Origin: Pedobacter sp.
Lineage (GTDB): Bacteria; Desulfobacterota; Desulfuromonadia; Geobacterales; Pseudopelobacteraceae
Reading direction: 5' to 3'
NCBI GenBank assembly: GCA_041672425.1
Contig: JBAYZR010000001.1
Location: 1 to 51,490 of the forward strand
DNA length: 51,490 nt
The translations under genes and the position numbers were made by a program. Shown here in pieces: positions 10,817 through 49,670 of the stretch; position 1 is the stretch's first letter, and the number at the start of each line of letters is the position of its first letter. The notes under the pieces were generated by a model that saw only the letters and a list, made by a program, of their open reading frames with translations, did no database searches and was not told where the DNA came from.

Positions 10817-10885
10817 CCGGAGTTGCTGCAACTATCTTACTCATCCAGTTATGGGTATATTGTCAATTGGATAAAACGAATATGG

Positions 10886-11941: not shown

Positions 11942-11983
11942 GGCTGTACCTCATGCATGGCTTTGGATTATATCGTTGTGAAT

Positions 11984-12014
11984 AATAAAAATGGGGATGT
12001 GCGAACATCCCCAT
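11984..12014 (-). terminator. Rho-independent terminator downstream of the response-regulator gene
   Basis: On the minus strand, ATGGGGATGT-TCGC-ACATCCCCAT is followed by TTTTATT. Confidence 0.6.
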
Positions 12015-12048
12015 TGGCTTGTTTGTTGGCTTAGGAGCTGCGTTCCGT

Positions 12049-17655: not shown

Positions 17656-17733
<78 letters not shown>

Positions 17734-17766
17734 ATCATATGTCCGGCACAGTCCGGCTTGATACAG

Positions 17767-17793
17767 AAAGCCCTGAGAAATTAGGGCTTTTTT
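17767..17793 (+). terminator. Rho-independent terminator after tRNA-Glu
   Basis: AAAGCCCT-GAGAAATT-AGGGCTTTTTT. Confidence 0.7.
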
Positions 17794-17910
17794 GTTTTTG
17801 CTTGTCCAGCACAATCCGCCTTGATATGATGGAATCCAGTTAGTTTAAGGGTGTTTCTGGGGGTGTTTCAAAAAACCCTCAAAACGGACACCCTCAAAAA
17901 GGGGGATGCC

Positions 17911-31707: not shown

Positions 31708-34700
31708 ATGCCGATAGATCTACAAGACACAGGCTATGTAGATAATGGAATAGAAGAAAATGGCTATGATGATACCGTATTTATTCCCGCACCTACTAAT
31801 GACCTCTTCAATGGTCAAGTGCCAATAGAGCAAGCGATACAAAGGCTCCGCACAAAACTACTTGATATTTCATCAAAAAACCGTCTTATCAGCTACAGAT
31901 ACCCAAAAGGCAAATCAATTCAATTTGTCAATTCCCCGAACCTAAATCTCATATTCAATCGCCTTACCGAAAGCAAGCCTATTGGCATCAGCTTCGTTCA
32001 AGACCCTCCTGTAGGTAGCTATACACAGAAAAAGCCCGATGTAAAAGTCATTGCGGAATCTCTTGGGATAGATGTCGATATAGATTTCCCTCCCGAATCA
32101 TGCGCTCCCAGTACCCATAGGCGCTTGTCTAACTTACAGGCCCTTTTTTACCCCCAAGATCTTGATAAAATATGCCGCAAAATTGCAAGCGAGGCTCGTA
32201 CAGTAATCGAGGAAACCGGCACAAATATGCTGTTCCTTATTTTCGGATTCCTTGAATTCTATGATTCCGACGATTCAGAGAAACCGATTTATGCACCATT
32301 ACTCGCTGTTCCTGTCACCCTAAATCGTGGGTCAATTGACCCAATAACCAGAACCTATTTGTATTCGATAAATTATTCAGGTGAGGATGTTCATTCAAAT
32401 CAGACTTTGAATGAAAAGATGAAGCAGGATTTCACTCTTAATTTGCCTGAATATAACGATGAAGAAGAAATTGGTGAATACTTTACTGCAATCTCCCAGG
32501 CTGTCAAAAACAAGAATCGGTGGAGAGTCAGATATCAGCTGACTTTGGGGTTCTTATCTTTTGGCAAGTTGGCTATTTGGGCAGACCTCGACCCTAAAAA
32601 GTGTTCTGGGCTTCTGACTCACCCATTATTGAATGAAATATTTTCTGGCGGCAATGGGGGTGGTGTCGGACAATCCGCAGAAGATTACGAGATTGATAAC
32701 CATTATCAGGGCGAACTCCCGCTAATCTATGATGCCGATTCATCACAGCATAGCGCAATAATAGATGTTATGGACGGGAAGAATATTGTAATCAATGGAC
32801 CTCCCGGAACCGGAAAATCGCAGACAATTACGAACATTATTGCATCAGGGTTGAACGCTGGTAAAACTGTTCTGTTTGTATCAGAAAAGCTTGCGGCCCT
32901 TGAAGTTGTACGGCATCGACTGAATCACGCAAATCTTGGTCATTTTTGTTTAGAACTGCACAGTCACAAAACTCAGAAGAAAAAGCTGTTGAGTGACCTT
33001 CAAGACCGTATCGATGCCTATTTTGTTCCCCCTCAACAATTGCAAAACCGGATAACAACGCTCAACCGCCACAAGAAAGACCTCAATCGGTATGTTGAAT
33101 TAATTTCTAGTCGAATTGGTAACGAACTTGGCCTAACTGTCCATGAAATCTTCTGGAAAACAGAACGATTTCGACAAATGAACTGTGAGATGGTCAATAC
33201 CCTCACATCGTTGAACTACCAAAAGGCTGAAAACTTAACTTTAGATGAAATTGCCGATTTACGTGCAAAGGTTGAAGTTCTAGGGCAATTATATTCGACA
33301 GTCAAAACCTACGATTCCAATCATCCATGGTGGGGGTTTTTCCCAAAGCCCCTTGCTCCAGGCGATGATTCAGCAATAAGTCTTGTAATAAACGAGGCCA
33401 AGACTCTTGCTGAAGCACTTTATATTTTGACAATTGAGTTCCAAGAACGGGTTTCATTTTTGCAGGAACCATCACTTGATACGCTATTGTCTTTCAATCG
33501 TCTTGTTCAAGAACTATCGACTCCACCAGATAACCTGAGAAGTGAAATATTTCCCCGCGTATTTAATGCTGAAGACCCGCTTGGTAAGCATAACAGGGGT
33601 CTTTTGAATGGCGTAATTAGCACAGTGAAAAACGCACGGGAGCTTAAGGAACAAGCAGAGAAAAATATAGTTCCTAATTGCGAATTGAGCTATGAAACCG
33701 CAGGACCTATTCTGGAGAGTTGCAAGAGTCAACTATCAAAAACCGCTTTTAGCACACCACTTCATATTGTTGCTGAATTCGTATCAGATGCCGAAAATGC
33801 CCTATCTCAATTCAAGAACGTTATCTCAGAATACAATTACATTTATCAGTCTATACCCGGTTCAAACACTGAAAAGCTGGAAAAGTTTGATTCAAGGTTT
33901 AATGCAACATTGCCACTCACCCTTGAAGAACAGCCGGAATGTCTTATCAGAGAAGGTTCGAGATTTCTTTCAGAAGAAATAGAAAGCCTGAAACAATCTT
34001 TTGAGCGAGTATCTGCAATTGCACATCACAGGGAATTGAAATTTGATGGGACTCCAACAGAAGTTGAGAATTTGGGACGTGGAGAAGGTATCGCAGAAAT
34101 TCTTCCTGGAGTCAGAATAGACGAATCGATACTTGAAAAAACAAGACAGGCCGCAAAATACTATCTATCAGACTTGCCTATCGGTGAGACAGATAGACGG
34201 CAACAGGGACTACATGACCTGAATGACCGGGTTAACCGTTTACTCTACGAAATCGGTGGATATGCCCAAAACCTGTATTTGACGTTTGACGGTACTCAGA
34301 AATCACTCGAATACCTTGCGACAATAAGCAAGATATCATCAGCTGCACCTACAGACCTCCTAGATTACCGTCACGCACCTCTTGCACATCCAATGTCGTT
34401 AGAGCTGATACCAAAGGCTGAAGAGGCGTTACAGTCCGAATTATTACAACGACAGGCACTTACTAACGCGTTCCATCTTGATGCTTTACCTGAATTGAGC
34501 ACGTTGAAGAGTACCATGCTGACGTTTAGACGTGGTGATAGCCTTTTCAATATATTCAACAGTGACTGGAGAGCTGCAAAGAAGCTCTTTAATAACCTGT
34601 CCAAGAATAAGACAAAGCATAAGGCATCTGAATATGAAGAGAAAATATCAAAAATAATCAGCTGGCTTGAGTACAGAACGGCACTTACTTCCAACGAAGA

Positions 34701-35034
34701 CTTCAAAAGGTCGTTTGGCCCATTGTTCAGAGGTCTTGATACAGACATCTCCAAAATTAAACGGTTGCACAACTGGTATATGGAGAGCATGGCAGAGTTG
34801 CTTAAGCATCCAGGGCTTATAGATAATGTCGATTTATCTACTATGAGTTCACAGACCATTAACCAGGTGGGGGCATTATCCGCAAGGATACAGGTAATTG
34901 TAGATGAACTTAATACCAGTTTGACCGAATGCAGGGATTTTCTTGGAGAAATCGCAGTACAGATGGACTCCGTTTTAGGCAGTCTGGATGGAATGAATAT
35001 AGCAAGAAAATCAGCGAGATTGCTGATGCTTTGA
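31708..35034 (+). CDS. DUF4011 / Upf1-like SF1 helicase giant protein, N-terminal part (frameshifted)
   Basis: LRTKLLDISSKNRLISYRYPKGKSIQF and MLFLIFGFLEFYDSDD fit the DUF4011 pattern. Walker A is INGPPGTGKSQTITN. The frame switches near 34960-34990 into the ORF starting at 34929. Confidence 0.75.
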   Translation: MPIDLQDTGYVDNGIEENGYDDTVFIPAPTNDLFNGQVPIEQAIQRLRTKLLDISSKNRLISYRYPKGKSIQFVNSPNLNLIFNRLTESKPIGISFVQDPPVGSYTQKKPDVKVIAESLGIDVDIDFPPESCAPSTHRRLSNLQALFYPQDLDKICRKIASEARTVIEETGTNMLFLIFGFLEFYDSDDSEKPIYAPLLAVPVTLNRGSIDPITRTYLYSINYSGEDVHSNQTLNEKMKQDFTLNLPEYNDEEEIGEYFTAISQAVKNKNRWRVRYQLTLGFLSFGKLAIWADLDPKKCSGLLTHPLLNEIFSGGNGGGVGQSAEDYEIDNHYQGELPLIYDADSSQHSAIIDVMDGKNIVINGPPGTGKSQTITNIIASGLNAGKTVLFVSEKLAALEVVRHRLNHANLGHFCLELHSHKTQKKKLLSDLQDRIDAYFVPPQQLQNRITTLNRHKKDLNRYVELISSRIGNELGLTVHEIFWKTERFRQMNCEMVNTLTSLNYQKAENLTLDEIADLRAKVEVLGQLYSTVKTYDSNHPWWGFFPKPLAPGDDSAISLVINEAKTLAEALYILTIEFQERVSFLQEPSLDTLLSFNRLVQELSTPPDNLRSEIFPRVFNAEDPLGKHNRGLLNGVISTVKNARELKEQAEKNIVPNCELSYETAGPILESCKSQLSKTAFSTPLHIVAEFVSDAENALSQFKNVISEYNYIYQSIPGSNTEKLEKFDSRFNATLPLTLEEQPECLIREGSRFLSEEIESLKQSFERVSAIAHHRELKFDGTPTEVENLGRGEGIAEILPGVRIDESILEKTRQAAKYYLSDLPIGETDRRQQGLHDLNDRVNRLLYEIGGYAQNLYLTFDGTQKSLEYLATISKISSAAPTDLLDYRHAPLAHPMSLELIPKAEEALQSELLQRQALTNAFHLDALPELSTLKSTMLTFRRGDSLFNIFNSDWRAAKKLFNNLSKNKTKHKASEYEEKISKIISWLEYRTALTSNEDFKRSFGPLFRGLDTDISKIKRLHNWYMESMAELLKHPGLIDNVDLSTMSSQTINQVGALSARIQVIVDELNTSLTECRDFLGEIAVQMDSVLGSLDGMNIARKSARLLML

Positions 35035-38024
35035 GAGAAATTACCTCTTTCCTTAAAAACTACATAAAGCCAGATGTTTCCCCGGTTCGAGCAGTTGATG
35101 TATTGAATGCGAAATTAGAATTATCATCTGCCGTTGTTGATTTTGAAGCCCTGAATAATGGCATCAGGTTAATTCATGACAAGTATGAGCATTATCTTCC
35201 CGGAATATCCAAAATCCCTTGCAACAACTGGCGCGAGTATCTTTCTCAGCTTTCAAAACTGGCCAGCACAACCGCTTGTTTAGCCAGCTCAATACTTGAG
35301 TATGCAGACAGCAAGTGTGATTATTCAAAAGTAAGGGCATTCCTGGTTGCAAAGCTTGAGCTTGATAACGTGTTGTCAAGATTTGCCCCGTGCCCTGACA
35401 AAACAGAAACCGCAAGCTGGAAGGAATACCATTCTATAGCGGCTTCCCGAATTGCCACAGCTTCAGAGCTGGTCAATATGCTATTGCCTGTTGGAGTTGT
35501 AGGCAAGACGGCCAAAGAGATGGTAGACGGCCTGATTTCGAAGAAAAGATCCATCGATACTATTCAGGAAATCCATAACAACAAAGCAGTTATGGTCATG
35601 TTGCAAGACCTCTTTGACGGTATGGATACTGATTTAGAGGCTCTTTCAGCAACACTGGGGTGGGGCGAAGAGATTTCAAGAAAACGTAGCATACAGGGAA
35701 CGCCACTTCTTTCATATTTGTTGAGCCAAAATGCCGTAGAGAACCTAGAAGATGCAAAAATACAACTACGAAAAATAGTGGAAACGCGCCAAAGGGTTCT
35801 GGCTAAACTCACTGAATTAAAGGAATTTGGAGAGTTTGACGCAAAAGAATGGAATTGTTCAGAAGACGATTATGCTCATTTGTTTCTCAAGCGAATAGAG
35901 TGTGCTGCAACCAACTTGGATGCTGTCTTAACCTGGTCAAGATACATTCATCAACGCTCAGTCTGTCATGATAACGGCCTGAAGACTTTTGTAAATCACG
36001 TTGAGAACAAAGTAGTACCTGTTGATAATATTGGCGACATCTTTGAATACATCGTTTACCGCTCAATCGGCAGGAAAATATACCGGCAATACCCGGAACT
36101 TGAGGGCTTTAGTGGTGAAAAACATGACAAAATACGAGCAGAATTTGTTGCACTTGATAAGGAAATCATCAATCTAACCGGCAAAAGCTTTGCCTATGAT
36201 ATCGACAAGTCAAAGTGTGTTCCTGATGGGGTTTCCAGCTATAAGGTTTCTGAATTGACGGATATGCACTTATTAAGGAAAGAAATTAATAAAAAGACCA
36301 AACATATTTCAATCCGACAGCTGATACGACGCGCAGGGGATGCAATTCAGGCACTGAAACCTTGTTTCATGATGGGGCCGCTATCCGTTGCACAGTACAT
36401 ACAGCAAGGCGCAATTTCTTTCGATATGATAGTGATGGACGAAGCTTCACAACTCAGACCGGAAGAATCGTTAGGTGCTATTGCGAGAGGTTCACAGTTA
36501 ATCGTTGTTGGAGACCCCAAACAGCTCCCGCCTACCAATTTCTTTGACCGCCTGGCTGATGATAGCGAGGACGATGATGAAAGTGAAGCTGCATCAGTTT
36601 TTGCAGGCACAGAGAGTATCCTTGATATCTGCCAGCAACTGTTTCATCCGGTTCGAACGCTTAAATGGCATTACCGGTCTCAGCATGAATCCTTGATAGC
36701 ATTCTCGAACCACAATTTCTACAATGGAAAGCTGATTGTATTCCCCTCACCATTTGCCAAAAACAACCGGCTGGGACTCCGCTACCGTTACATTAAGAAC
36801 GGGGTTTACAAAGACCGTCAGAACATGGTTGAAGCACAACGGGTGGTGGATGCTGCAATTGAGCACATGATGAAATTCCCTGAAGAGTCACTGGGAATAG
36901 TGACGCTCAACCAGACACAGCGCGACCTTATCGAAGACTTAATGGACAAAAAAGTACGTAATATCGATGAAGCCCAGTCATTTATTTCGAATTGGGAAGA
37001 GGAAGGATGGCCGTTTTTCGTCAAAAACCTCGAAAATGTACAGGGTGACGAACGGGATATCATCTTCATCTCCACAACTTTCGGAAAGCCAGTAGGAGCT
37101 GATAAGGTTCGTCAGAACTTTGGCCCTATAAGCCGACCGGATGGCTGGAGGCGGCTTAACGTTCTATTTACTCGTGCCCGTAGAAAAATAGAGCTTTTCA
37201 CATCAATGTTGCCAGAGGATATAATCATTGCGGCAGGTACACCAGCAGGGACAAGAGCCTTAAGGGATTACCTGGATTTTGCCAAGCGTGGGGTACTCGC
37301 TTCGACAGAGGTAACGGGACGTGAGGAAGACAGCGATTTTGAGATTTCTGTAGGCGATATGTTACGGAATCGAGGATACGAAGTTGTGCCTCAAGTTGGA
37401 GTCGCGGGCTTTTTTATTGACCTGGCTGTACGAAATCCCGACCGCCCTGGTGAATTCCTGGCAGCTGTTGAGTGCGATGGTGCCAGCTACCATTCCAGTG
37501 CTTCAGCCAGAGACCGCGACCGAATCAGGCAGAGTATCCTTGAGTCTCTTGGCTGGAGGGGCCGCATTTGGCGTATCTGGTCAACTGATTGGTTCTACAA
37601 TCCAAGAAGGGAATCAGAAAAACTAATAAACTTCCTTGAAGAACGAAGGGAAATTTCCAAAACAGAGCAAATTGACTATGAGATCGAAGAGGTATTTGAA
37701 GAGGATGATACCGTAATTATTCAGCCAGCGCCAGAAGAAGCAGCTGATACTTTAGAACCATCTCTGCCCGTTGCAAATGAGGAACTTTATGTTGAAGTCG
37801 GAGATTTAGTCACCTATTGCCATGTAGATAACCCAGAAGAACGCAAAACAGCGACGATTGTTGAAACCGAAAGCAATATACAAAAACACTTTGTCAACGA
37901 AAACACCCCGCTTGCTAAAGCCATGCTGGATTCTGCCGTAGGCGATACTGTAGGAATTGTCGTAGCCGGTGGTCATCCTAAAGTAATCAAAATTCTGAAA
38001 ATTCAGCGGCAGGGGGAGGGCTGA
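34929..38024 (+). CDS. Same giant protein, C-terminal part: helicase motifs II-VI, DUF559/Vsr-like endonuclease fold, DUF3320-like tail
   Basis: Helicase motifs IVMDEASQ, VVGDPKQLPPT, WHYRSQHESLIAFSNHNFYNGKL and NVLFTRARRKIELFTS. These are followed by FFIDLAVRNP...AVECDGASYHSSASARDRDRIRQSILESLGW...IWSTDWF. Confidence 0.75.
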   Translation: MQGFSWRNRSTDGLRFRQSGWNEYSKKISEIADALREITSFLKNYIKPDVSPVRAVDVLNAKLELSSAVVDFEALNNGIRLIHDKYEHYLPGISKIPCNNWREYLSQLSKLASTTACLASSILEYADSKCDYSKVRAFLVAKLELDNVLSRFAPCPDKTETASWKEYHSIAASRIATASELVNMLLPVGVVGKTAKEMVDGLISKKRSIDTIQEIHNNKAVMVMLQDLFDGMDTDLEALSATLGWGEEISRKRSIQGTPLLSYLLSQNAVENLEDAKIQLRKIVETRQRVLAKLTELKEFGEFDAKEWNCSEDDYAHLFLKRIECAATNLDAVLTWSRYIHQRSVCHDNGLKTFVNHVENKVVPVDNIGDIFEYIVYRSIGRKIYRQYPELEGFSGEKHDKIRAEFVALDKEIINLTGKSFAYDIDKSKCVPDGVSSYKVSELTDMHLLRKEINKKTKHISIRQLIRRAGDAIQALKPCFMMGPLSVAQYIQQGAISFDMIVMDEASQLRPEESLGAIARGSQLIVVGDPKQLPPTNFFDRLADDSEDDDESEAASVFAGTESILDICQQLFHPVRTLKWHYRSQHESLIAFSNHNFYNGKLIVFPSPFAKNNRLGLRYRYIKNGVYKDRQNMVEAQRVVDAAIEHMMKFPEESLGIVTLNQTQRDLIEDLMDKKVRNIDEAQSFISNWEEEGWPFFVKNLENVQGDERDIIFISTTFGKPVGADKVRQNFGPISRPDGWRRLNVLFTRARRKIELFTSMLPEDIIIAAGTPAGTRALRDYLDFAKRGVLASTEVTGREEDSDFEISVGDMLRNRGYEVVPQVGVAGFFIDLAVRNPDRPGEFLAAVECDGASYHSSASARDRDRIRQSILESLGWRGRIWRIWSTDWFYNPRRESEKLINFLEERREISKTEQIDYEIEEVFEEDDTVIIQPAPEEAADTLEPSLPVANEELYVEVGDLVTYCHVDNPEERKTATIVETESNIQKHFVNENTPLAKAMLDSAVGDTVGIVVAGGHPKVIKILKIQRQGEG

Positions 38025-38232: not shown

Positions 38233-38553
38233 GTTTGCGATATTGATATTGATGAATAAGTGGTTCCATAGGTTGATTCGGGAAAATCAACCGTTGTCAT
38301 ATCTGCATATATTATGAAGTTTCAGTGCTACTGGATCGAGATAAATGGGTGTTGAACAATGCGAAATACTTTATGAACACAGAGTAAATATTCCGTTTGG
38401 ACAGATGACCTGTTTTTGCGCGCGCGTGAACTGCTCAACAATGAGTTGAACAAACCCGATAACAGATCAAATTCAAACCAAGAAACCGAGCGTCCTTGAA
38501 GGCCGCTGAACAAAGCATACTAGAATATCAATTCAAACTAAAATGTGGAGGAG

Positions 38554-40773
38554 ATGATGAGTGTTTGGAGCGTAGATGCTGATGATATTAAAACCGAACA
38601 AGATTTTGAAGAGGTTTTACTTTACAAAACACCATGGATTGATAATTTTCTGGACATGGAAAGAGGAAGTAAATTTATTGTAATAGCAACAAAAGGATTT
38701 GGTAAAACATTTCTACTCAAAGCAAAAAGAATAATGTTTCAAAAAGAGCGAAAAGATATTCAGTGTATTCCTGAAAATAGTTTACTTGACAAACCTGCGG
38801 GTGAGACCATTTTCAGTGCTGAAATGTGTGATTTTTATAGTGGCACATCTAACCACTGGGTAACTATTTGGACGGCATCTATTGTAATAACGGTACTCAA
38901 ACAGTTGGGTAAATTATCCGACGATGATTTAAGCAAGAAATTATCAGTACTAAAGAATAACAACTTAAAAACTGTTACAGACCATTTAGTAAACATTTTG
39001 AAAATGGGGCGTGAAAATTACTTCGAATTAGTTGACAACTATAATGAAAATCTAATTCCTAAGTCAAAGAACATTCATTCACCGATTGCAATATTTATAG
39101 ATAATGTTGATGAATATTTTAAAAAACATATTAATCCAGAGATAATGCGCCCAAGCGATGTTGGTGAAGTATCGCCAACTATCTGGTATTATTCGCAGAT
39201 TGGTTTAATTGAAGCAATATATCAATTACAAAGGTCAAATCACCATTTAAAGGTATTTGCTTCAATTAGAAAAGAAGCAGTTTTAAAACTTAAAGAATTT
39301 GACCCAATGATTCAGCAGTACCTTGGAAGCAGTGTAGATGTTGTTTATTCTCGGCAAGACATCATGGAGATTTTTATAAAAAATATTAAGAAAGATAAAA
39401 ATCTCATTGATGCTTCAATAAAAGAAAATAATCCTATCCAAGCGTTTTTAGGGCTATTGCAAGTAACACATTCATTGTCTCGAGAAAAAGAAAACATCTT
39501 TGATTACATTTACCGCCACACGTTACAAAGACCACGCGATTTCATGGTTATTGGCGCAAGAATATCAGACACGAGACCATTAGATAGAACAGAAGATAAT
39601 TTAAAGATAATAATCAACAAAGCTGCTTCCGATATAGCTACGCAATATATTAATGAAACATTACCGCATATCGATGGCCTTGATTATGACAAACTATTCG
39701 AGCTTATTGACAAAAACATATTAACAAAAAAAGATGTTAATAAAATATGCAGTAAATATAATAGTAATAGTTGCTATGATTCTGACTGTAAATTGTGTGA
39801 TCTTAACCATGTATTTTGTAATTTGTACAAAGCAGGGCTATTAGGTTACATAAGAAAAGATCTTGTCTATGCGTCAAAAATACAAAAATTTGCCTTGCCT
39901 GGCGAATACACGTTTGATCCGAACGGAATATTACCGACATCTCCTTATTATTTTCTTCACCCAATATTAGAGGAAAAAATTCGGTCACTAAATCCAAAAT
40001 TCGAGAAAAACATCGCCAAAATAATAATAGGTTATGATCATCCATGGAACGGGTTGAAGCAAACCACACCCTCGATTTTACCAGACCAATTAAGAGATGG
40101 CACAACAAAAAAAATAGTACTTGTTGCCTGTCATCCAGACGACGAAGTATTATCATCAGGAGCATTGCTTTTGAAGGCAGCGCGCCAGGGTTTTCAAATA
40201 TTCTTGGTTTTGGTTACTCAGGGAGAAAGTAGTGGTAGTTTAAATGCAAAAAATCGAAAAGATGAAGCAAATGAAATTGCACTCAAACTTAACGCCACCA
40301 TTACATTTTTAAACTATTCCAATAATGACCTACTTTGTGACGGCAAAATTGATCTTTCTGAAACAACAAAGGAAGTAGAAAAATTAATTAAAGATATTTC
40401 TCCTGATATTATTGTTTGGCCACACGGAGAATCACCTGACCAACATCAAGATCATGTAACACTCCACAAGGCGATTACAAATATCCAGAAACGTTATAAA
40501 TCTGATCAATGTTGCTGGATTGCAGCACAACCACCTGTTTTCGGTGACAGCGGTTTCAAACCAACGAACTATTTAAAAATTGATGCCGAACTTTTAAAAC
40601 AAAAGTATAGATTGATGAGACTGTATAAATCTGAAAAATTAAAAAAATTCGCGTCATATCAATTCATCAAAACAAAAGCCCTACATTGGGCAAGTGAAGG
40701 TAATTGTAGTTTTGATTATGCTGAACCATTTCAGCTTCATAAAGGCTTTCTACCACTTGAGCTTTTTGTGTGA
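38554..40773 (+). CDS. P-loop NTPase fused to a PIG-L/LmbE-family metal-dependent deacetylase
   Basis: GGAGGA RBS, then ATG at 38554 or 38557. Walker A IATKGFGKTFLL, Walker B IAIFIDNVDE. The C-terminal ~220 aa carry VLVACHPDDEVLSSGA and ESPDQHQDH, the PIG-L zinc-ligand motifs HPDD and HxDH. Confidence 0.7.
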   Translation: MMSVWSVDADDIKTEQDFEEVLLYKTPWIDNFLDMERGSKFIVIATKGFGKTFLLKAKRIMFQKERKDIQCIPENSLLDKPAGETIFSAEMCDFYSGTSNHWVTIWTASIVITVLKQLGKLSDDDLSKKLSVLKNNNLKTVTDHLVNILKMGRENYFELVDNYNENLIPKSKNIHSPIAIFIDNVDEYFKKHINPEIMRPSDVGEVSPTIWYYSQIGLIEAIYQLQRSNHHLKVFASIRKEAVLKLKEFDPMIQQYLGSSVDVVYSRQDIMEIFIKNIKKDKNLIDASIKENNPIQAFLGLLQVTHSLSREKENIFDYIYRHTLQRPRDFMVIGARISDTRPLDRTEDNLKIIINKAASDIATQYINETLPHIDGLDYDKLFELIDKNILTKKDVNKICSKYNSNSCYDSDCKLCDLNHVFCNLYKAGLLGYIRKDLVYASKIQKFALPGEYTFDPNGILPTSPYYFLHPILEEKIRSLNPKFEKNIAKIIIGYDHPWNGLKQTTPSILPDQLRDGTTKKIVLVACHPDDEVLSSGALLLKAARQGFQIFLVLVTQGESSGSLNAKNRKDEANEIALKLNATITFLNYSNNDLLCDGKIDLSETTKEVEKLIKDISPDIIVWPHGESPDQHQDHVTLHKAITNIQKRYKSDQCCWIAAQPPVFGDSGFKPTNYLKIDAELLKQKYRLMRLYKSEKLKKFASYQFIKTKALHWASEGNCSFDYAEPFQLHKGFLPLELFV

Positions 40774-40794: not shown

Positions 40795-41616
40795 ATGAAA
40801 CCCGTTGAAAACGTATACGAAGTTGCCTTTATACTTCTCAGCTCGGTTGGCGGAGCGGCTGTGATTATTTGGAGCCTTTCATCCTGGCTCGGAAAGGTTT
40901 GGGCTAATCGGATTTTGGAATCTGAAAAAGCCAAATATACTAAAGAACTTGACTCCATCAGACATCAATTTCAGGTCGAACTGAATCGTGTGTCTATCAT
41001 TCATGAAAACCAAAAAATCAGCTTTCGAAACGTAATAATAGCATTAAGTAAAGCAATAAAGGCTTTAGAGCAGGCTTATGACGAAGAATGGTGTCCCATA
41101 AGTGATCGTAAATATGATGAATTGAGGAATATTGTGATCGAAGAATCTCTGTTTCTTGGGAAAGATGGAGAAAATGCATTGGATGTATTTTTGAAGTTTT
41201 TCGGAAAATCAACATATTTTCCAGAAATAGAAATTCAACCAGATCGGATGCTTAGGAACGTTTATGAATACTTGACTTACATCGATGGCAGAATTCGGGA
41301 GTACTTTAGAAAACGAATTGGACTGTCAGACGAAGAAAATCCGCTTTTTGAGGTTTACTTGCTAGACGTTTGTTTAATTCTCAATGACTACCATCCGAAG
41401 GGGAACCGGTTCACCTATGATGAAATCTTTAATTTTGATTTTGACTCTCCTCCATTGGTATTGATTGAAAAATATATATCTAATTTAGATGCACTTAAAG
41501 CAAATATGAAAAAATACATTGAAATAGTTGAGATAGACGACAAAAATAGGAAATTTTACTTTGAAGATCTTTCTAGGATAAGAATGTATTTGAAGCTTAT
41601 ATGTTCCAAGGGATAA
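40795..41616 (+). CDS. Single-pass membrane protein with a helical cytoplasmic domain
   Basis: 273 aa, 21 nt after the previous stop, with an AAAGGTGA RBS. The N-terminal hydrophobic helix is VAFILLSSVGGAAVIIWSLSSWLG. Confidence 0.6.
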   Translation: MKPVENVYEVAFILLSSVGGAAVIIWSLSSWLGKVWANRILESEKAKYTKELDSIRHQFQVELNRVSIIHENQKISFRNVIIALSKAIKALEQAYDEEWCPISDRKYDELRNIVIEESLFLGKDGENALDVFLKFFGKSTYFPEIEIQPDRMLRNVYEYLTYIDGRIREYFRKRIGLSDEENPLFEVYLLDVCLILNDYHPKGNRFTYDEIFNFDFDSPPLVLIEKYISNLDALKANMKKYIEIVEIDDKNRKFYFEDLSRIRMYLKLICSKG

Positions 41617-41747
41617 CGAACGTGTTTGAAAGTAACCGGTCGCCAAACACAGCCCGTTGAACTAATCCGCTTCGCGGAAAGTGCAAATCAAGCAAGTTAC
41701 AAGTGAAAAAACTCACCAACCACTCAACAATCATTGGGGATCGGTAT

Positions 41748-42458
41748 ATGCACCCATTAACATATTTTGTTGACGAATCGATCAAGGTCTTTGATGGAGA
41801 TGAAATTTGTGCGCTAATTGCAATTAAGACAATAGATTCTTCCAAGCTGAATTCACTTATCAGAGATTCAATAGCTAGAATTATTTCTGACCCAGTATTA
41901 AGTCAGCATAGCGGAATAAACGGCACATGGATTCCGCACTACTGTAATGACCACCCAATTGAAGTGCACCCGCAATTCTTGCGAGACATCTCCCAAATGC
42001 CATTTGAGGCATATATTGTATTTGGTCAAAAAAATAAGTTTCCGCAACTAGATGAGTACGACTGGTATGATAATCTGATAAAAATCCTATTTACGTTCAG
42101 GTTGTCTGCTGACAAGGGGCGCATTGATAGAGTCGTGTACGAGCAGCATGATTCCAAACTGGGCAAGAGGGAAATCCACCTACAGAAGTTATTTCAGTCA
42201 ATGACTCAGAAGGATGCACAAAGACGAAGAACCGAGACAACCAGCATACTGGTTAAGTCTGCTGGCAAAGATGTACTGCCTCTATGTTTGTCAGACTACA
42301 TCGGTGGAAGCTTTATGTCGTATCTGTGCGAGACTGACAAGTCAAAGCTGGGGCCAAAACGAAGAGGATTTGAATTAGTAGCAAAAAAGATACGCTGGAT
42401 CAAGAATGCCGACAGTAGCGAAATATATACATCAAAACATCCATTTTATAAGGATTGA
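41748..42458 (+). CDS. DUF3800-like protein
   Basis: ATG at 41748 after GGGGA. The track ORF starts at a GTG at 41703. The N-terminal YFVDES and C-terminal PLCLSDYIGG resemble the DUF3800 DESG and LQ-x-AD motifs, recalled from memory. Confidence 0.45.
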   Translation: MHPLTYFVDESIKVFDGDEICALIAIKTIDSSKLNSLIRDSIARIISDPVLSQHSGINGTWIPHYCNDHPIEVHPQFLRDISQMPFEAYIVFGQKNKFPQLDEYDWYDNLIKILFTFRLSADKGRIDRVVYEQHDSKLGKREIHLQKLFQSMTQKDAQRRRTETTSILVKSAGKDVLPLCLSDYIGGSFMSYLCETDKSKLGPKRRGFELVAKKIRWIKNADSSEIYTSKHPFYKD

Positions 42459-42483
42459 CAGGCATGCTCCAAACTGCGAATAT
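42455..42483 (+). promoter_or_regulatory. Sigma70-like promoter candidate overlapping the DUF3800-like gene stop
   Basis: TTGACA (42455-42460), a 17-nt spacer, then GAATAT (42478-42483). The predicted start near 42490 coincides with the 5' arm of the RNA stem. Confidence 0.4.
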
Positions 42484-42488
42484 GCAAC

Positions 42489-42574
42489 TGCTGGAGGGCG
42501 TGGGTAAATCGCCTCGGGCGCGAGTCGCGCTCGATTTTCTTCGACACTTTCAATCTTACCTACGTCCTCTGGCA
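42489..42574 (+). ncRNA. Structured RNA candidate (19-bp stem with 4 G-U pairs enclosing a GC hairpin); possible retron ncRNA part or RT leader
   Basis: GCTGGAGGGCGTGGGTAA (42490-42507) pairs with TTACCTACGTCCTCTGGC (42556-42573) through 14 Watson-Crick and 4 G-U pairs, plus one further flanking T-A pair. These four positions would be A-C mismatches on the opposite strand. The inner hairpin is GGGCGCG-AGT-CGCGCTC. Confidence 0.4.
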
Positions 42575-42576
42575 AT

Positions 42577-43506
42577 ATGATTAAATACGAACTCATAAAA
42601 AACATTGATGGTCTAAGCCTAAATCTTGGGGTCACACGTGCATATCTGACTCAAGCCATTGAGTCGCCCATTCTTCAGTACAATGTTGCAAAGATCCCCA
42701 AACGAGGCGGTAAGGGGCGGCGCACTTTGTATCTCGCCAACGACATTCTAAAAGGCATACAAAAAATTATCCGTGATGACTTGACTGACAGAACTAAATG
42801 GCCGGATTGCGTTCATGGTTTTGTAAAAGACCGGTCAATTGCAACCAACGCAAAGTTACATCTATCGAAGCGTGTTATTTTAAATTTAGACATCAAATCC
42901 TATTTTGAATCTATAGACAAGGCTAAAGTCGCGCAGGTTTTTTGCACACTCGGAGCAACTGAAAAAATTGGCGATCTGTTGGCTGCAATATGCACATGCG
43001 ATGACTACTTGGTGCCTGGGACTGTTTGTGCCCCTATTATTTCAAATATGGTGTTTTCCAATTGCGACAAAGACCTTCTTGAAATCGCAGCAAAATTTCA
43101 ATGCACATACTCAAGATATGTTGATGACATTACATTTTCCGGAGAAAACACCCCTCCGATTAAAGAGATAGACAACGTACTTAAATACCATGGGTTTTTT
43201 AGAAATACAGAGAAAACATTTCGGCAGACCCGTGGTCGAAGGCAATACGTCACTGGATTAACCGTGTTCGACCGAACCATTCCAAGAATTCCAAAATGGA
43301 AAAAAAACGAATTCAGAAAAAAAATTCATTTTATGGAGAAATATGGAATAGATGGCCATTTATCCAGAATTGGAAGCAGAGAATCAGTCGTAGATTTTGT
43401 AATAAGGTTTGATGGGCTGATTAGCTTCTATCTATCGATCGAGCCACACTTTATATCTAAATACATGGGAAATTGGCAAAAAGCTAAGAATTCTTGGGGA
43501 TATTAG
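42577..43506 (+). CDS. Retron-type reverse transcriptase
   Basis: 309 aa with IPKRGGKGRRTLY, HGFVKDRSIATNAKLH, LNLDIKSYFESI, YSRYVDDITFSG (YxDD box) and RRQYVTGLTVF (retron VTG motif). Confidence 0.85.
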   Translation: MIKYELIKNIDGLSLNLGVTRAYLTQAIESPILQYNVAKIPKRGGKGRRTLYLANDILKGIQKIIRDDLTDRTKWPDCVHGFVKDRSIATNAKLHLSKRVILNLDIKSYFESIDKAKVAQVFCTLGATEKIGDLLAAICTCDDYLVPGTVCAPIISNMVFSNCDKDLLEIAAKFQCTYSRYVDDITFSGENTPPIKEIDNVLKYHGFFRNTEKTFRQTRGRRQYVTGLTVFDRTIPRIPKWKKNEFRKKIHFMEKYGIDGHLSRIGSRESVVDFVIRFDGLISFYLSIEPHFISKYMGNWQKAKNSWGY

Positions 43507-46900: not shown

Positions 46901-47027
46901 GTATCCGCCATTCTTGCTCCCTGGTTCAAAGTATGACGGGATGGTGATTCACGAAGGGGTTAAAATGTCCTTTGTTCCAGCATTTACTGCGCGAGGAAAT
47001 ATCGCTCATCGTCCGTTACCAACTTGA
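43968..47027 (+). CDS. SIR2-STAND-TPR protein (Avs5-like / SIR2-STAND antiviral ATPase architecture)
   Basis: 1019 aa with a GGAGGA RBS. SIR2_2-type motifs CVLFIGAGVG, IFTTNYDN and YYLHGAL. The central P-loop-like region is VILGSAGYGVTTLLM with YFIIDNAADN. The C-terminus holds TPR-like repeats (YQGLAQLYIGWA, RYLLGRAYRKAGRYNDA). Confidence 0.75.
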   Translation: MIDIPLGLRNTLESGNCVLFIGAGVGGHLTDPVGRSAPDGGTLARELGDHFGIDVGDAPDLMKISKLVEIRKGRQALELFLKKRLANLEPDEKLRTLLTRRWRAIFTTNYDNSIKRGFELSESPQQNPIIITSTSEIVDYDARFQVPIYYLHGALFGEEITNIVITDDDYSTFRESRKMLFELLKKEFITCPILYVGYSNRDPNWKIVLSEITSEFYPSPLPKSFRIDPYADGHDIEIMSAKNIDTVNATIADFSDTIAAELPIDAGISDRLAKLKVNISADFLDAFEQNPAPVVRLLSSWEYVNDANFAGAPNVHNFLRGDRPNWGLIGKNDVFVRDIEEDVYNDVIDFATMENVRPFQSVILGSAGYGVTTLLMTIAASIIKEKAGAVLFLKPGRQLLEGDVDFALSVIKGNVYFIIDNAADNHHNLAVMIQKLRDEKKTCYFLVGDRINEWRQVQGKVSFKEFVFEPLTDPEIYRLLDYLAKHNELNTLEGLTKELQFTAIKNVHGKELLIAMREATENKSFDAILEDEFWGIGDAFSRTMYLYVCFFYQHGAFVRASLLADLLGVDESELYARTKSSTEGVVLFDCLNESTGMYGARTRHRTIANIVWDRCGDATEKEGIIYKALDAINLTYKADKDAFEYFTKSDYIVDSIRTLEGKTKFFEVACRKDPVNPYVRQHYSRMLVRENRHELALSQIDEALKLNQRLRALYHTRGIVLMHMAHFAESSDIGRRRMAQSESMFRKCLSMYPRDDYSYQGLAQLYIGWAKKRPETPEEVAEYVGKAEGVINEGLRVVRVRDALYIESSNIQQLIGDEPSYLRALENAVRVNDASVIARYLLGRAYRKAGRYNDATTVLEYIIKNFIDEFRCFIEYGLCLIYKKQSYTSAIAVMSLSTLYGFSDPRYLATLGGMYFLNQQFEEATRIFSETGRRNFTANELNAIQFIPPDPTDISQELRFTGSCIKTKPGYSLVETPGYPPFLLPGSKYDGMVIHEGVKMSFVPAFTARGNIAHRPLPT

Positions 47028-47097
47028 AACACTGCTCGAACTTTCCCTATTTCCGATCTTGAAATTAGAATATTTGCTTAATCCTAAAAGGAAACCA

Positions 47098-48531
47098 ATG
47101 GCCCGCATCAAAAAAACCACTCAACCGCAAACCACAACCCAGCAATTGGGTTCTATCGTCAAATCCTCCCGCGACATCATGCGTAAGGACAAGGGGCTTT
47201 CCGGCGACATCGACCGGCTCCCCGTACTTACCTGGATCATGTTCCTCAAATTCCTCGATGACATGGAGCGAATACGGGAGGAAGAAGCGATTCTTTCCGG
47301 TGAGAAGTTCCGGCCGGCAATTGAGACACCTTATCGCTGGCGCGACTGGGCCGCCCGGGAAGATGGCATCACCGGCGATGAGCTGATAGCTTTCGTCAAC
47401 AACGATGAAGCGGTTCGTCCGGATGGCACCAGGGGCGCCGGGTTGTTCGCCTATCTGCGCGGGCTCCAGGGAATCAATGGCGGCGACCGGCGAGATGTCA
47501 TCGCCACCGTATTCAAAGGCACCATCAACCGGATGATCAACGGCTACCTCCTTCGAGACGTGATAAACAAGGTCAACGGCATTCACTTCACTTCGTCCGA
47601 CGAAATTCACACCCTGAGCCACCTCTACGAATCCATGCTCAAGGAGATGCGCGATGCAGCCGGCGACGCGGGAGAATTCTATACCCCTCGCCCGGTTGTC
47701 CGCTTCATGGTCGATGTCCTCAATCCCATGTTGGGTGAAACCATCCTTGATCCGGCCTGCGGCACCGGCGGTTTTCTGGTGGAGGCCTACAACCATCTGG
47801 AGAAGCAGTGCAGTACCGTCGAAGAGCGAAATATTCTCCAGGGAAGCAGCATTTATGGCGGCGAAGCCAAGCCGCTCCCCTATCTGCTGGTGCAGATGAA
47901 CCTTCTGCTGCACGGGCTGGAATTCCCCAGAATCGACCCGGATAACAGCCTCCGCTTTCCGCTCAATGAAATCGGCGACCGGGATCGGGTGGATGTCATT
48001 CTCACCAATCCCCCTTTTGGCGGTGAGGAAGAGAAAGGAATTCTCAACAACTTCCCCGCCGAGATGCAGACCTCGGAGACGACGCTTCTCTTCCTCCAGA
48101 TGATCATGCGCAAGCTCAAACGTCAGCCAAAGCCCGGTCGGGCCGGGGTGGTCGTCCCCAATGGCATGCTCTTCGGCGACGGCATCTGCGGGCGAATCAA
48201 GGAACGGCTGATCAAGGACTTTAACCTGCATACCATAGTGCGTCTGCCCAACGGCGTTTTTGCACCGTATACCGGTATCCCCACCAACCTCCTTTTCTTC
48301 GACCGCTCCGGGCCGACAAAAGAGGTCTGGTACTATGAACAGCCGTTGCCGGAAGGGCGGAAGAACTACACCAAAACCCAGCCGGTCCAGTTCGAGGAAT
48401 TTGCCGATTGCCTGTCATGGTGGAAAAACAGGGAGGAGAACGAGCACGCCTGGCGCGTGCCGGTAGAGCGGATCATCGAGAACGGCTACAACCTGGACAT
48501 CAAGAATCCCACCGGCAAAGATGACTTCTAA
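47098..48531 (+). CDS. hsdM: Type I R-M DNA methyltransferase M subunit (C-terminally truncated by an in-frame TAA)
   Basis: ATG at 47098 after an AAAAGGA RBS. The HsdM N-terminal pattern DRLPVLTWIMFLKFLDD is present. AdoMet motif DPACGTGGFL and catalytic motif LTNPPFGG. Confidence 0.9.
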   Translation: MARIKKTTQPQTTTQQLGSIVKSSRDIMRKDKGLSGDIDRLPVLTWIMFLKFLDDMERIREEEAILSGEKFRPAIETPYRWRDWAAREDGITGDELIAFVNNDEAVRPDGTRGAGLFAYLRGLQGINGGDRRDVIATVFKGTINRMINGYLLRDVINKVNGIHFTSSDEIHTLSHLYESMLKEMRDAAGDAGEFYTPRPVVRFMVDVLNPMLGETILDPACGTGGFLVEAYNHLEKQCSTVEERNILQGSSIYGGEAKPLPYLLVQMNLLLHGLEFPRIDPDNSLRFPLNEIGDRDRVDVILTNPPFGGEEEKGILNNFPAEMQTSETTLLFLQMIMRKLKRQPKPGRAGVVVPNGMLFGDGICGRIKERLIKDFNLHTIVRLPNGVFAPYTGIPTNLLFFDRSGPTKEVWYYEQPLPEGRKNYTKTQPVQFEEFADCLSWWKNREENEHAWRVPVERIIENGYNLDIKNPTGKDDF

Positions 48532-48636
48532 CATCTGCCGCCGGAGCAGTTGGTGGAGGATATTGTTCGGAAGGAGCAGCGGATTTTGGAGATCATGGGT
48601 GAGATTAGGCAGGTTCTGGCGGGGAGTGGACTATGA
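48532..48636 (+). pseudogene. Severed in-frame tail of hsdM (34 codons)
   Basis: After the TAA at 48529-48531 the same frame continues HLPPEQLVEDIVRKEQRILEIMGEIRQVLAGSGL*. It ends in an ATGA overlap with the next gene. Confidence 0.6.
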
Positions 48637-49670
48637 AACCGGTTGTCGCTCTGGATCAAGTTTATGGAAGAATCAGAGAAGTTCTCGCGGAAGCCCGTTC
48701 TCAGGCCTACCGGGCAGTCAACTTCTCCATGGTGCAAGCATACTGGAATATTGGCCGGGTAATTGTGGAGGAGGAACAGCAGGGAAAAAATCGGGCCGAA
48801 TACGGCAAAAGCTTGATCAAGGGTCTCGCTGTGCGGCTCACTGCGGAATACGGCAAAGGGTTTGATCACTCGAACATCTGGAACATGCGGGCCTTTTATC
48901 TTGCTTTCACAAAAATCGACGCACTGCGTCGAGAATTGACCTGGACCCATTACCGCTTGCTGCTGCGGGTTGAAAAGGAAACCGCCAGGGATTTTTACCT
49001 TGATGAGTGTATCACCGCCAACTGGAGCACCCGCCAGCTTGAACGGCAGATCAATTCGTTGTACTACGAGCGTCTGCTGGCAAGCCGCGACCGCGAGCCG
49101 GTGCGGGCTGAGATTCAGGAGCTGGAACCCGGCCCCTCTCCGCAGGATGTCATCAAAGATCCGTATGTATTGGAATTTCTCGGTCTCGGAGATAATCCGA
49201 GCTTCCGGGAAAAAGTGCTGGAAGGAGCATTGATCGCCAAACTTCAGGAGTTTCTGCTGGAGCTTGGCCGGGGGTTCTCCTTCGTCGCCCGCCAGAAACG
49301 GTTCACCTTCGATGGTCAGCACTTTTTTATTGATCTGGTATTTTACAACTACGTCCTCAAATGCTTTGTTCTTATTGATCTGAAAGTCGGCACGCTGACC
49401 CATCAGGACATGGGCCAGATGCAGATGTACGTCAACTACTACACCCGCGAAATGATGAACGAGGGGGATAATGTTCCGATCGGCATTGTACTCTGTGCCG
49501 ACAAGAGTGATACCCTGGTTCGCTACACTCTGCCGGAGGGGAACAATCAAATCTTCGCCTCTCGTTACAAACTCTATCTGCCGACTGAAGAGGAGTTGGC
49601 GGCCGAACTGAAGCGGGAGAAACAGGCCATTGAATTGGAACGGCGGCTGACAGGGGTGGCGGATGAGTAG
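48633..49670 (+). CDS. YhcG/DUF1016-family PDDEXK nuclease-like protein
   Basis: 345 aa with LTWTHYRLLLRV, WSTRQLERQINSLYYERL, DPYVLEFLGL and FFIDLVFYNYVLKCFVLIDLKVG. Confidence 0.8.
   Translation: MKPVVALDQVYGRIREVLAEARSQAYRAVNFSMVQAYWNIGRVIVEEEQQGKNRAEYGKSLIKGLAVRLTAEYGKGFDHSNIWNMRAFYLAFTKIDALRRELTWTHYRLLLRVEKETARDFYLDECITANWSTRQLERQINSLYYERLLASRDREPVRAEIQELEPGPSPQDVIKDPYVLEFLGLGDNPSFREKVLEGALIAKLQEFLLELGRGFSFVARQKRFTFDGQHFFIDLVFYNYVLKCFVLIDLKVGTLTHQDMGQMQMYVNYYTREMMNEGDNVPIGIVLCADKSDTLVRYTLPEGNNQIFASRYKLYLPTEEELAAELKREKQAIELERRLTGVADE

Follow-up and report, generated by a model that had tools for sequence, protein, structure and literature searches.

A LmbE/PIG-L deacetylase domain fused to an Sll1717-like ATPase within a bacterial defence island: a candidate immune effector on an ATPase with exchanged outputs

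Introduction

What is a deacetylase-like domain doing at the end of an ATPase, in the middle of a set of defence genes? The question is raised by a stretch of 51,490 nucleotides, here called the window, from a genome deposited as Pedobacter sp. and placed by GTDB in the Desulfobacterota (assembly GCA_041672425.1, contig JBAYZR010000001.1, positions 1 to 51,490, forward strand). One gene in the window encodes a protein of 738 amino acids, of which about 500 N-terminal residues form a P-loop ATPase and about 220 C-terminal residues resemble the LmbE/PIG-L family of metal-dependent deacetylases. The reading that we favour, with a confidence somewhat above even, is that this fusion is a self-contained, single-gene conflict protein, most likely anti-phage, in which the ATPase would act as sensor and switch and the PIG-L domain as effector. 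The PIG-L domain is read as the output because the same position in sister proteins holds NADase, kinase or bSEFIR-like domains, and because its own nearest relatives are fused to HigB-like domains and lie beside XRE-type genes.

A first-pass annotation of the window had already proposed the fusion of a P-loop NTPase, resembling either STAND (signal transduction ATPases that have numerous domains) or ORC (origin recognition complex) proteins, with a PIG-L deacetylase. This architecture is fully supported here by domain, motif and structure evidence. Of the five sequence motifs on which the annotation was built, all were found: ATKGFGKT, IAIFIDNVDE, VFASIRKEA, VACHPDDE (residues 524-531) and HQDH, the positions of the others being given in Table 1.

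The fusion gene

The protein is encoded by one open reading frame (ORF) on the + strand, 38545/38554..40773. Other in-frame starts are ATG 38554 and GTG 38545, and the start was taken to be ATG 38557 because a GGAGG sequence at 38547-38551 lies 5 nt upstream of it, the database entry for the protein (P0001) has 738 residues, and the N-termini of the homologues, which read M-x-x-W-x-VDADDI, agree. Residue numbers below follow the 739-residue translation from 38554, so that one has to be subtracted to number the 738-residue product.

Both domains are under purifying selection and the gene is real. The ratio of nonsynonymous to synonymous substitution rates (dN/dS), from a codon alignment with the homologue P0002, is about 0.04 for the ATPase and about 0.07 for the PIG-L domain, against 0.35 for the linker between them; dS is saturated, and the ratios are therefore rough. 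The full-length homologues P0002 and P0003 are 78% and 47% identical to the window protein, respectively. Together, the dN/dS values and the full-length homologues rule out a pseudogene or a chance ORF. By our own arithmetic, the chance of a 739-codon open frame at 33.5% guanine plus cytosine (GC) is about 1e-24.

The C-terminal domain

The C-terminal part, of about 220 residues, is predicted to be a catalytically complete LmbE/PIG-L zinc hydrolase. For residues 523-643, the Pfam family PF02585 (PIG-L) gives an E-value of 2.6e-20 and a score of 73.7 bits, the cutoff being 28.2, and P0002 and P0003 also match it. A phmmer search of the PDB sequences returned BcZBP/BshB (2ixd), diacetylchitobiose deacetylases, TT1542 and MshB. 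The signature of the LmbE superfamily is HXD1D2 followed by a further H, where D1 serves as general base and the spacer measures 97-148 residues (PMC4101496); in the window protein the spacer from D530 to H634 is 103 residues, which is inside this range. Alignment to BcZBP/BshB identifies the His/Asp/His zinc triad as H527, D530 and H634, and with it the general-base Asp and the substrate-binding Arg and His (Table 1). H631 and D633 are also the equivalents of MshB His144 and Asp146. A 6-residue insertion makes the equivalent of MshB Asp95 ambiguous, the two candidates being D589 and D596. Both of the zinc-ligand motifs singled out in the first-pass annotation are thus present, although their separation had been overestimated: HQDH lies 107 residues after VACHPDDE, rather than about 115. 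The assignment of this part of the protein to the PIG-L family holds, given the PF02585 match, the metal triad, the general-base Asp and the substrate Arg and His.

Structure prediction leads to the same fold. An AlphaFold 2 (AF2) model of residues 505-739, made with an alignment of 81 sequences, has a mean pLDDT (predicted local distance difference test score) of 93, and the top 42 Foldseek matches to it in the PDB all belong to the LmbE superfamily, with template modelling (TM) scores of 0.60-0.76 and E-values from 3e-13 to 1e-8. In the full-length model, for which the alignment held just 5 PIG-L sequences, the pLDDT of this part is below 50.

The domain stands apart from the thiol-biosynthesis members of the superfamily. 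Its NCBIfam equivalog scores are 44.9 for BshB1 (cutoff 182.5), 25.2 for MshB (cutoff 224) and 21.9 for Mca (cutoff 277); these are far under the cutoffs, and the window protein is therefore no orthologue of the thiol-pathway enzymes. All of the characterised LmbE enzymes hydrolyse small molecules with an N-acetyl- or N-acyl-glucosamine core, and none acts on nucleic acids (PMC4101496).

The N-terminal ATPase

An ORC/Cdc6-STAND-like AAA+ ATPase, complete with helical lid and winged helix, makes up residues 1-498. The hallmarks of AAA+ proteins of the STAND and ORC/Cdc6 types are all present, namely Walker A, Walker B, an Arg after strand 4, the lid and the winged helix, and in the full-length AF2 model this part is confident (pLDDT about 85-93), with a P-loop core, the helical lid and a winged-helix-like domain. 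An alignment of 37 members of the ATPase family was used to judge conservation (Table 1). The segment VFASIRKEA probably corresponds to the sensor-1 region of STAND/ORC-like proteins, by its resemblance to the STAND pattern hhhh[ST]xR, and RHTLQRPRD in the lid is a putative sensor-2/Arg motif. The latter is the signature that the family conserves most strongly, and HTLxRPRD was the pattern chosen automatically from the alignment for the family search. The cluster of Cys residues within the winged-helix domain is confined to sequences of the subclade with PIG-L, NIR or kinase outputs (see below). It is worth adding that the motif WxVDADDI, upstream of the P-loop, is near-invariant across the family and that nothing in ORC/Cdc6 or STAND proteins obviously corresponds to it.

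The nearest named family is NCBIfam NF047389, 'P-loop ATPase, Sll1717 family', of which profile positions 6-430/454 are covered at 73.3 bits, the cutoff being 75 bits. Relatives score between 64 and 130 bits overall: P0002 69.3, P0003 75.2, P0004 76.0, P0008 80.9, and a SEFIR-fused plasmid protein 130.4. The best PDB matches by Foldseek are archaeal Orc2/Cdc6 and BrxC, with TM scores of 0.44-0.47 on the target; at the sequence level the ATPase has no PDB match. Pfam and NCBIfam find no nuclease or other killing domain in it.

Relatives of the ATPase and their C-terminal domains

A search of 5.8 billion proteins gave 587 relatives, and the C-terminal domains were judged on the best 120 of them. 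The ATPase module of about 500 residues is common to these proteins, and it is the C-terminal domain that varies. In the large majority it is a class III cyclase-like domain, as indicated by JGI naming, by motifs and by weak profile matches to 1ybt and 3et6. P0004 carries a C-terminal DUF4062 domain and P0005 a Ser/Thr kinase, and a PIG-L domain is found only in the window protein, P0002 and P0003.

The homology ends at one shared point, after the sequence (I/V)(I/V)GY(D/G)RPW at residues 491-498, which in the window protein reads IIGYDHPW and is the last conserved stretch before the junction. A short variable linker comes next, and in the alignments with P0004, P0005 and P0008 the identity collapses at this linker. 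It is at residues 499-519 that this family exchanges its C-terminal domains. Over the ATPase module, the window protein is 56% identical to P0004 and P0005, 53% identical to P0003 and 44-46% identical to the cyclase types, and a neighbour-joining tree places the PIG-L, NIR and kinase variants in one subclade.

Several of these alternative outputs are recognised from immunity. DUF4062, which has been renamed NIR, is an NAD+-degrading defence effector, as shown by experiment, and is enriched near defence genes, the reported figure being 20% where the background is roughly 4%. The kinase of P0005 matches the defence kinases PD-T4-6 and MAD6 in PADLOC. In a member encoded on the Butyrivibrio plasmid pCY186 (WP_013283038), the C-terminal domain matches the PADLOC bSEFIR model with E=2e-27, and its profile score marks it as a distant but bona fide Sll1717-family protein. 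On this comparison, the PIG-L domain sits in a slot that relatives fill with recognised immune effector domains.

The family as a whole is broader than this. Of 185,579 species-representative genomes, 213 contain the ATPase module; these are mostly metagenome-assembled genomes from soil and sediment, span many phyla and include one archaeon. The hosts of cyclase-type proteins include Binatia, Methylomirabilota, Burkholderiales and one Nitrosotalea archaeon, and in the best 80 of the 213 genome loci the protein is always cyclase-type, with about 680 residues. One cyclase member adjoins TIR proteins. When viral contigs were scanned with the ATPase alignment, a single distant protein of the cyclase type came up, adjoining a relaxase-like gene; its setting resembles a mobilisable element and not a phage. 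A literature search for the Sll1717 family found no paper.

The PIG-L clade

When the PIG-L domain alone was used in an exhaustive HMMER scan of 1.84 billion representative sequences, about 20 matches were obtained at 218-98 bits, the next being at 74 bits and generic PIG-L. A profile search repeats the gap, which falls between 257 and 101 bits. Judging by these scores, the domain belongs to a sharply bounded clade. Besides the catalytic residues, Q632, R647, S693, E694 and K697 are invariant in it.

Most members of the clade have about 330 residues and consist of a PIG-L domain followed by a Gp49/HigB-like domain (PF05973). The next gene encodes an XRE-type helix-turn-helix (HTH) protein in P0270 (on three contigs) and in P0140 (on two contigs), which is the canonical order of HigB and HigA. 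This cassette has the look of a toxin-antitoxin (TA) or defence module with a deacetylase domain. As an observation in its own right, the two-gene cassette of PIG-L-Gp49/HigB-like protein and XRE-HTH protein recurs in metagenomes and is uncharacterised. In P0122, the downstream genes encode a 182-residue protein and then a CHAT protease of 1133 residues.

Two further clade members, P0123 (782 residues) and P0129 (606 residues), have long unannotated C-terminal extensions, of 540 and 380 residues, respectively. By eye, the extension of P0129 contains a Nudix-box-like stretch; Pfam gives nothing significant in either extension. Metagenome and viral contigs were also scanned with the alignment of the clade, using a pattern (HPDDE) that is generic: among the matches listed there were only generic PIG-L proteins, at no more than 31% identity, and no new members of the clade or fusions.

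The defence island

The fusion gene lies in an island of low GC content (0.33-0.47), about 18 kb long, which interrupts a type I restriction-modification (R-M) system (GC 0.55) between hsdR and hsdM/hsdS. The island contains a split Hhe/ProA-like helicase-nuclease, a type VII retron pair, a SIR2-nSTAND5-TPR protein and an AAA_14/DUF4143 ATPase, and the fusion gene is placed between the Hhe/ProA-like gene on one side and the retron and SIR2-nSTAND5-TPR gene on the other. Its GC content, 0.335, is the lowest in the island, host genes being at 0.55. The fusion gene was horizontally acquired.

No partner gene is conserved. The three PIG-L fusions have unlike neighbours: P0002 lies by DUF3644 and Imm50 genes, P0003 by a DUF3368 TA-like pair, and the window gene by a reading frame here called ORF273. 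An all-against-all comparison of the neighbours at 80 genome loci of the ATPase family found no recurrent gene; the largest neighbour cluster, from 12 loci, was dismissed since it looks like spurious ORFs in high-GC sequence. In the absence of a conserved neighbour, the fusion gene is taken to be a single-gene unit.

ORF273 starts 21 nt past the stop codon of the fusion gene, has a GC content of 0.355 and encodes an N-terminal transmembrane helix at residues 10-28. It has no match in Pfam, NCBIfam, PADLOC or PHROGs. As a partner of the fusion gene it was rejected, being absent from the P0002 and P0003 loci and from all of the fetched loci; two possibilities for it are an orphan defence gene in its own right and an accessory specific to this locus.

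A possible mode of action and its alternatives

If the fusion is an immune protein, as we favour, it might work as follows. The ATPase module would detect a cue of infection, either a phage protein or a nucleic acid, the winged helix and the Cys cluster being the candidate sensing surface. On binding ATP the module would oligomerise and bring PIG-L domains together, so that they would be activated by proximity. Such activation is plausible because BshB is a hexamer of strand-swapped dimers and is inactivated by deletion of the swapped strand (PMC4101496). The active domain would then hydrolyse the N-acetyl (or N-acyl) group of a substrate of the N-acetylglucosamine (GlcNAc) type. A GlcNAc-bearing metabolite is the most likely substrate, since the characterised LmbE enzymes are all N-acyl-glucosamine hydrolases and the Arg and His are retained. 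The target could be a cytoplasmic envelope precursor, such as UDP-GlcNAc or an undecaprenyl-diphosphate-linked GlcNAc or lipid II-type intermediate, and its deacetylation would starve or poison the synthesis of peptidoglycan and lipopolysaccharide, aborting the infection through growth arrest or lysis. Provided that the domain is a defence effector at all, we would give an envelope precursor about one chance in three of being its target. The substrates suggested in the first-pass annotation, namely UDP-GlcNAc, precursors of the cell wall and acetylated DNA modifications, are likewise speculative.

A wider proposal is that the LmbE/PIG-L fold is an unrecognised class of immune effector which, when an ATP-dependent sensor turns it on, would kill or arrest the infected cell through deacetylation of an essential GlcNAc-bearing envelope precursor, or else would take an acetyl or amide group off a molecule specific to the phage, and that at the same time the Sll1717-like ATPase is a modular immune chassis with at least four outputs (PIG-L, NIR NADase, SEFIR and Ser/Thr kinase) in addition to the cyclase. 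This we put forward tentatively, with rather less than even confidence.

A number of observations weigh against an immune role. PIG-L fusions are very few, three among about 15 billion proteins searched, and two of the three are on contigs shorter than 5 kb. The cyclase-type proteins have as neighbours mostly monooxygenases, amidohydrolases, dehydrogenases and transporters (25 loci, two genes per side), and no defence signature was found in those flanking genes. Cyclases and kinases are classic signalling outputs of STAND proteins. A more distant member of the PIG-L clade, P0136 (35% identity), lies in a glycosyltransferase/radical-SAM sugar cluster, a context that looks biosynthetic. The window protein matches no family of PADLOC-DB v2.0.0 at E <=0.01. 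The ATPase falls just under the Sll1717 cutoff, and its Foldseek E-values, 2.5e-3 or higher, are too weak to place it in either the STAND or the ORC/Cdc6 clade. Because of the metabolic neighbours of the cyclase branch, the whole ATPase family cannot be called immune. The case for defence is limited to the low-GC subclade with PIG-L, NIR or kinase outputs, where it is drawn from one good genomic context, from the effector slot and from the PIG-L clade. The suggestion of a defence effector in the first-pass annotation, which we too infer rather than observe, is thus strengthened by the effector slot and the TA-like cassettes and weakened by the neighbours of the cyclase branch.

A non-immune alternative, which we consider unlikely, is that the protein is a signal-transduction ATPase with a housekeeping output, the regulated deacetylation of a sugar in an envelope glycan, a thiol or a polysaccharide, in parallel with STAND proteins that have cyclase, kinase or DNA-binding outputs. 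The principal branch, cyclase-like and among metabolic genes, favours this, and so does the sugar cluster around P0136; the kinase variant could equally be a signalling protein, and the known LmbE enzymes are all biosynthetic or detoxifying. The gene itself, however, is in a dense defence island with no glycan or thiol pathway gene adjoining, its GC content is 20 points under that of the host, and the fusion is exceedingly rare, with a patchy distribution. Also against a housekeeping role are the scores for BshB, MshB and Mca, far under the NCBIfam cutoffs, the NADase-type killer domains of sister proteins, and the TA-like cassettes of the nearest PIG-L relatives. Supposing instead that the protein is defensive, its PIG-L domain might act on a molecule specific to the phage, removing an acetyl or amide group from a hypermodified DNA base or a phage glycoconjugate; phage would thereby be exposed to the neighbouring restriction systems, and the immunity would be direct rather than abortive. 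The position of the gene within a type I R-M locus, alongside nuclease-based systems, is suggestive here. LmbE-like proteins are encoded by phages (PHROG 11796, and a PIG-L protein of a Stenotrophomonas phage), the best viral structural match of the domain is a LmbE-like protein of Campylobacter virus IBB35, and a LmbE gene occurs in a cassette resembling queuosine/glycosyltransferase DNA modification, adjoining G2L reverse transcriptases (PMC8632793). This is nevertheless quite improbable, given that characterised LmbE enzymes act on small GlcNAc or N-acyl-glucosamine molecules and not on nucleic acids, that the sugar-binding Arg and His are retained, and that the sister effectors NIR and SEFIR are abortive effectors directed at the host.

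A different kind of conflict is suggested by the PIG-L clade itself. With 43-50% identity, the closest PIG-L domains are joined to Gp49/HigB-like toxin domains, and a HigA-like XRE gene follows in toxin-antitoxin order; and P0002 adjoins an Imm50 immunity gene and P0003 a DUF3368 TA pair. The protein could on these grounds be an addiction or inter-element conflict module, in which a PIG-L toxin held in check by the fused ATPase would stabilise the island or compete with other mobile elements instead of sensing phage. The window gene, though, has neither a Gp49 domain nor an adjacent HTH antitoxin gene, and sensors, not antitoxins, typically have an ATP-dependent AAA+ switch together with a winged helix. 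We regard this as very improbable, noting that TA-like and anti-phage roles can coexist. Finally, the roles of the two domains might be reversed, with PIG-L as a sensing or regulatory domain for a GlcNAc-containing signal and the ATPase and winged helix as the acting part, perhaps with DNA as its target. BrxC and similar ORC/Cdc6-like ATPases are indeed DNA-bound scaffolds, and in the PIG-L-Gp49 fusions it is Gp49 that is the recognised toxin, so that PIG-L could be an accessory there. Against this stand the catalytic residues, all of them invariant in the clade, and the strong purifying selection, which point to an enzyme and not a mere binder; relatives have NADase, SEFIR or kinase enzymes in this slot; and the ATPase part is without a nuclease or other killing domain. 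We find such a reversal scarcely credible.

Comparison with known systems

The ATPase-gated effector that we favour has its closest parallel in the Avs (AVAST) proteins and other NLR-like STAND systems of one protein, which are likewise single polypeptides found in defence islands, with an NTPase switch of the STAND/AAA+ type and an exchangeable enzymatic effector. The effector of PsAvs2, DUF4062/NIR, is also the one found on the sister chassis P0004. The order of the parts differs, however: Avs proteins have the effector at the N-terminus and a repeat-array sensor at the C-terminus, whereas in the window protein the ATPase is N-terminal and the effector C-terminal. Its ATPase is of the Sll1717 family and has no repeats by Pfam, no PADLOC Avs model matches it, and LmbE/PIG-L is known in no Avs. 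Within the Sll1717 family (NF047389), it resembles the SEFIR member WP_013283038 in domain order; it is a divergent branch, with about 27% identity to that protein. To the ORC/Cdc6 ATPases (1w5t, 2qby, 1fnn, and BrxC of BREX, 9zll) the likeness is one of P-loop core, helical lid and winged helix, by weak matches, and the window protein differs from them in having no replication role and no multi-gene BREX context.

The PIG-L domain shares its fold, the HXDD...H site, the general base and the Arg and His with BshB/BcZBP (2ixd), diacetylchitobiose deacetylase (3wl3, 8bgo), TT1542 (1uan) and MshB (1q74). It is only 18-21% identical to these solved enzymes, is fused to a 500-residue ATPase and forms part of a separate clade; their context is biosynthetic, whereas its own is a defence island. 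The PIG-L-Gp49 fusions (P0270, P0140 and P0121-P0128) are much nearer, with shared invariant residues and a conflict-type setting. They differ in having the PIG-L domain at the N-terminus, a partner of the RelE/HigB fold, a separate antitoxin-like gene and no ATPase. The window protein, unlike type II TA systems of the HigB/Gp49-HigA kind, has no PF05973 domain, and the downstream ORF273 has no HTH.

Databases and literature are largely silent on such proteins. As for the window protein, PADLOC-DB v2.0.0 gave no families for P0003, P0004, P0008, P0270 or P0122; the only PADLOC matches were to the kinase domain of P0005 (PD-T4-6/mad6) and the SEFIR domain of the plasmid protein (bSEFIR). A literature search found no paper tying LmbE or PIG-L to a defence effector, the mentions being unrelated, and a survey of BREX and ORC/Cdc6 proteins has no LmbE in it. 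That the first-pass annotation was aware of no characterised defence effector with this fold agrees with what the PADLOC and literature searches returned.

Avs and NLR-like systems have made familiar the logic of pairing an NTPase switch with a swappable effector. What is new here is the chassis, the Sll1717-family ATPase, together with the fold of its candidate effector. Anti-phage effectors are known to act by cutting nucleic acids, consuming NAD+ or ATP, perforating membranes, or phosphorylating or proteolysing proteins; to our knowledge they include no zinc deacetylase or amidase with the LmbE fold. As an effector, the PIG-L domain would bring a new chemistry to bacterial immunity, with envelope-precursor or amino-sugar metabolism as the likely target; that pathway is the target of several antibiotics. 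It would also follow that new effectors can be revealed by looking at what replaces known ones on a little-studied chassis. The PIG-L-HigB-like/XRE cassettes offer an independent second system in which the PIG-L clade may prove toxic.

Other features of the window

The features of the fusion protein and of the surrounding window are collected in Table 1.

Table 1. Coordinates of the fusion gene, its domains and motifs, and other features of the window (aa, residues in the 739-residue numbering).
Feature	Position	Strand	Evidence or remark
ATPase-PIG-L fusion gene, complete (738 aa + stop)	38557..40773	+	ORF, Shine-Dalgarno sequence, homologue N-termini
W-S-V-D-A-D-D-I, aa 5-12	38566..38589	+	W5, D8, A9, D10, D11, I12 near-invariant in family alignment
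Walker A, ATKGFGKT, aa 45-52	38686..38709	+	G48, G50, K51, T52 near-invariant
Walker B, IAIFIDNVDE, aa 178-187	39085..39114	+	D186 invariant; D183, E187 near-invariant
VFASIRKEA, aa 234-242, strand and Arg	39253..39279	+	R239, K240, E241, A242 near-invariant; AF2 strand 232-239
RHTLQRPRD, aa 321-329, helical lid	39514..39540	+	R321 to D329 near-invariant
Winged-helix-like domain, aa 376-498	39679..40047	+	AF2 helices, beta-hairpin 430-436/441-446, pLDDT ~85-93
Cys cluster CX8CX4CX2C, aa 399-415	39748-39798	+	Motif search
Variable linker, ~20 residues, aa 499-519	40048..40110	+	Identity collapse, dN/dS 0.35, pLDDT <50
LmbE/PIG-L metal-dependent deacetylase/amidase domain, aa 520-739	40111..40770	+	Pfam, AF2, Foldseek
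H527-P-D529-D530 (HXDD motif)	40132..40143	+	Aligned to BcZBP/BshB (2ixd): H527 = H12, metal ligand; D529 = D14, general base; D530 = D15, metal ligand; clade-invariant
R568	40255..40257	+	= BshB Arg53 and MshB Arg68, substrate binding; clade-invariant
H631-Q-D633-H634	40444..40455	+	Aligned to BcZBP: H631 = H110, substrate binding; D633 = D112, orients H110; H634 = H113, metal ligand; Q, D, H clade-invariant, first H near-invariant
ORF273	40795-41616	+	
Type I R-M locus	26292-28667 and 46972-50808		Encloses island
AAA_14/DUF4143 ATPase	29124-30314	+	Left edge of low-GC island
Two unannotated ORFs, 177-181 aa	30470-31592		
Hhe/ProA-like helicase-nuclease, two overlapping ORFs	31708-35034 and 34929-38024	+	
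Type VII-like retron pair	41703-43506	+	DUF3800 protein 41703-42458, reverse transcriptase 42577-43506
Hairpin in retron gap	42514-42534		
SIR2-nSTAND NTPase 5-TPR protein, 1019 aa	43968-47027	+	Directly 3' of retron
YhcG/DUF1016-like gene	48633-49670		Between hsdM and hsdS
tRNA-Glu(UUC), then P4-type integrase	17656-19173		
AbiEi antitoxin-type regulator	25452-26231	+	Just upstream of hsdR
Snf2-family helicase, 1194 aa, and following ORF	7232-12034	+	

Within the island, the first ORF of the split Hhe/ProA-like gene has a DUF4011 domain and the N-terminal half of the helicase, and the second has AAA_12, an MTES_1575 restriction endonuclease domain and a GreA/B-like C-terminal domain, and matches positions 915-1697/1797 of the Hhe profile. 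Either a frameshift has made the pair a pseudogene, or the gene naturally comes in two parts. In the gap of 119 nt between the two retron genes there is a GC-rich, terminator-like hairpin, which could be part of the msr/msd RNA; Rfam finds nothing there. The protein encoded directly after the retron is an Avs-like defence protein of the NADase type.

Scans of the gene and its surroundings with general tools added little. Among 5,426 complete E. coli genomes, megablast found nothing that matches the fusion gene, a scan for promoters and terminators around it did no better than on shuffled sequence, and an Rfam scan found only the tRNA. This tRNA-Glu(UUC) gene is followed at once by the P4-type integrase, and from the two together a larger integrative island, starting at about 17.8 kb, is suggested; no direct repeat of the tRNA 3' end was found inside the window. 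Further upstream, the ORF that follows the Snf2-family helicase has 403 residues and no family match, and the helicase itself shows partial similarity to defence helicases of the ZorD/DrmD type.

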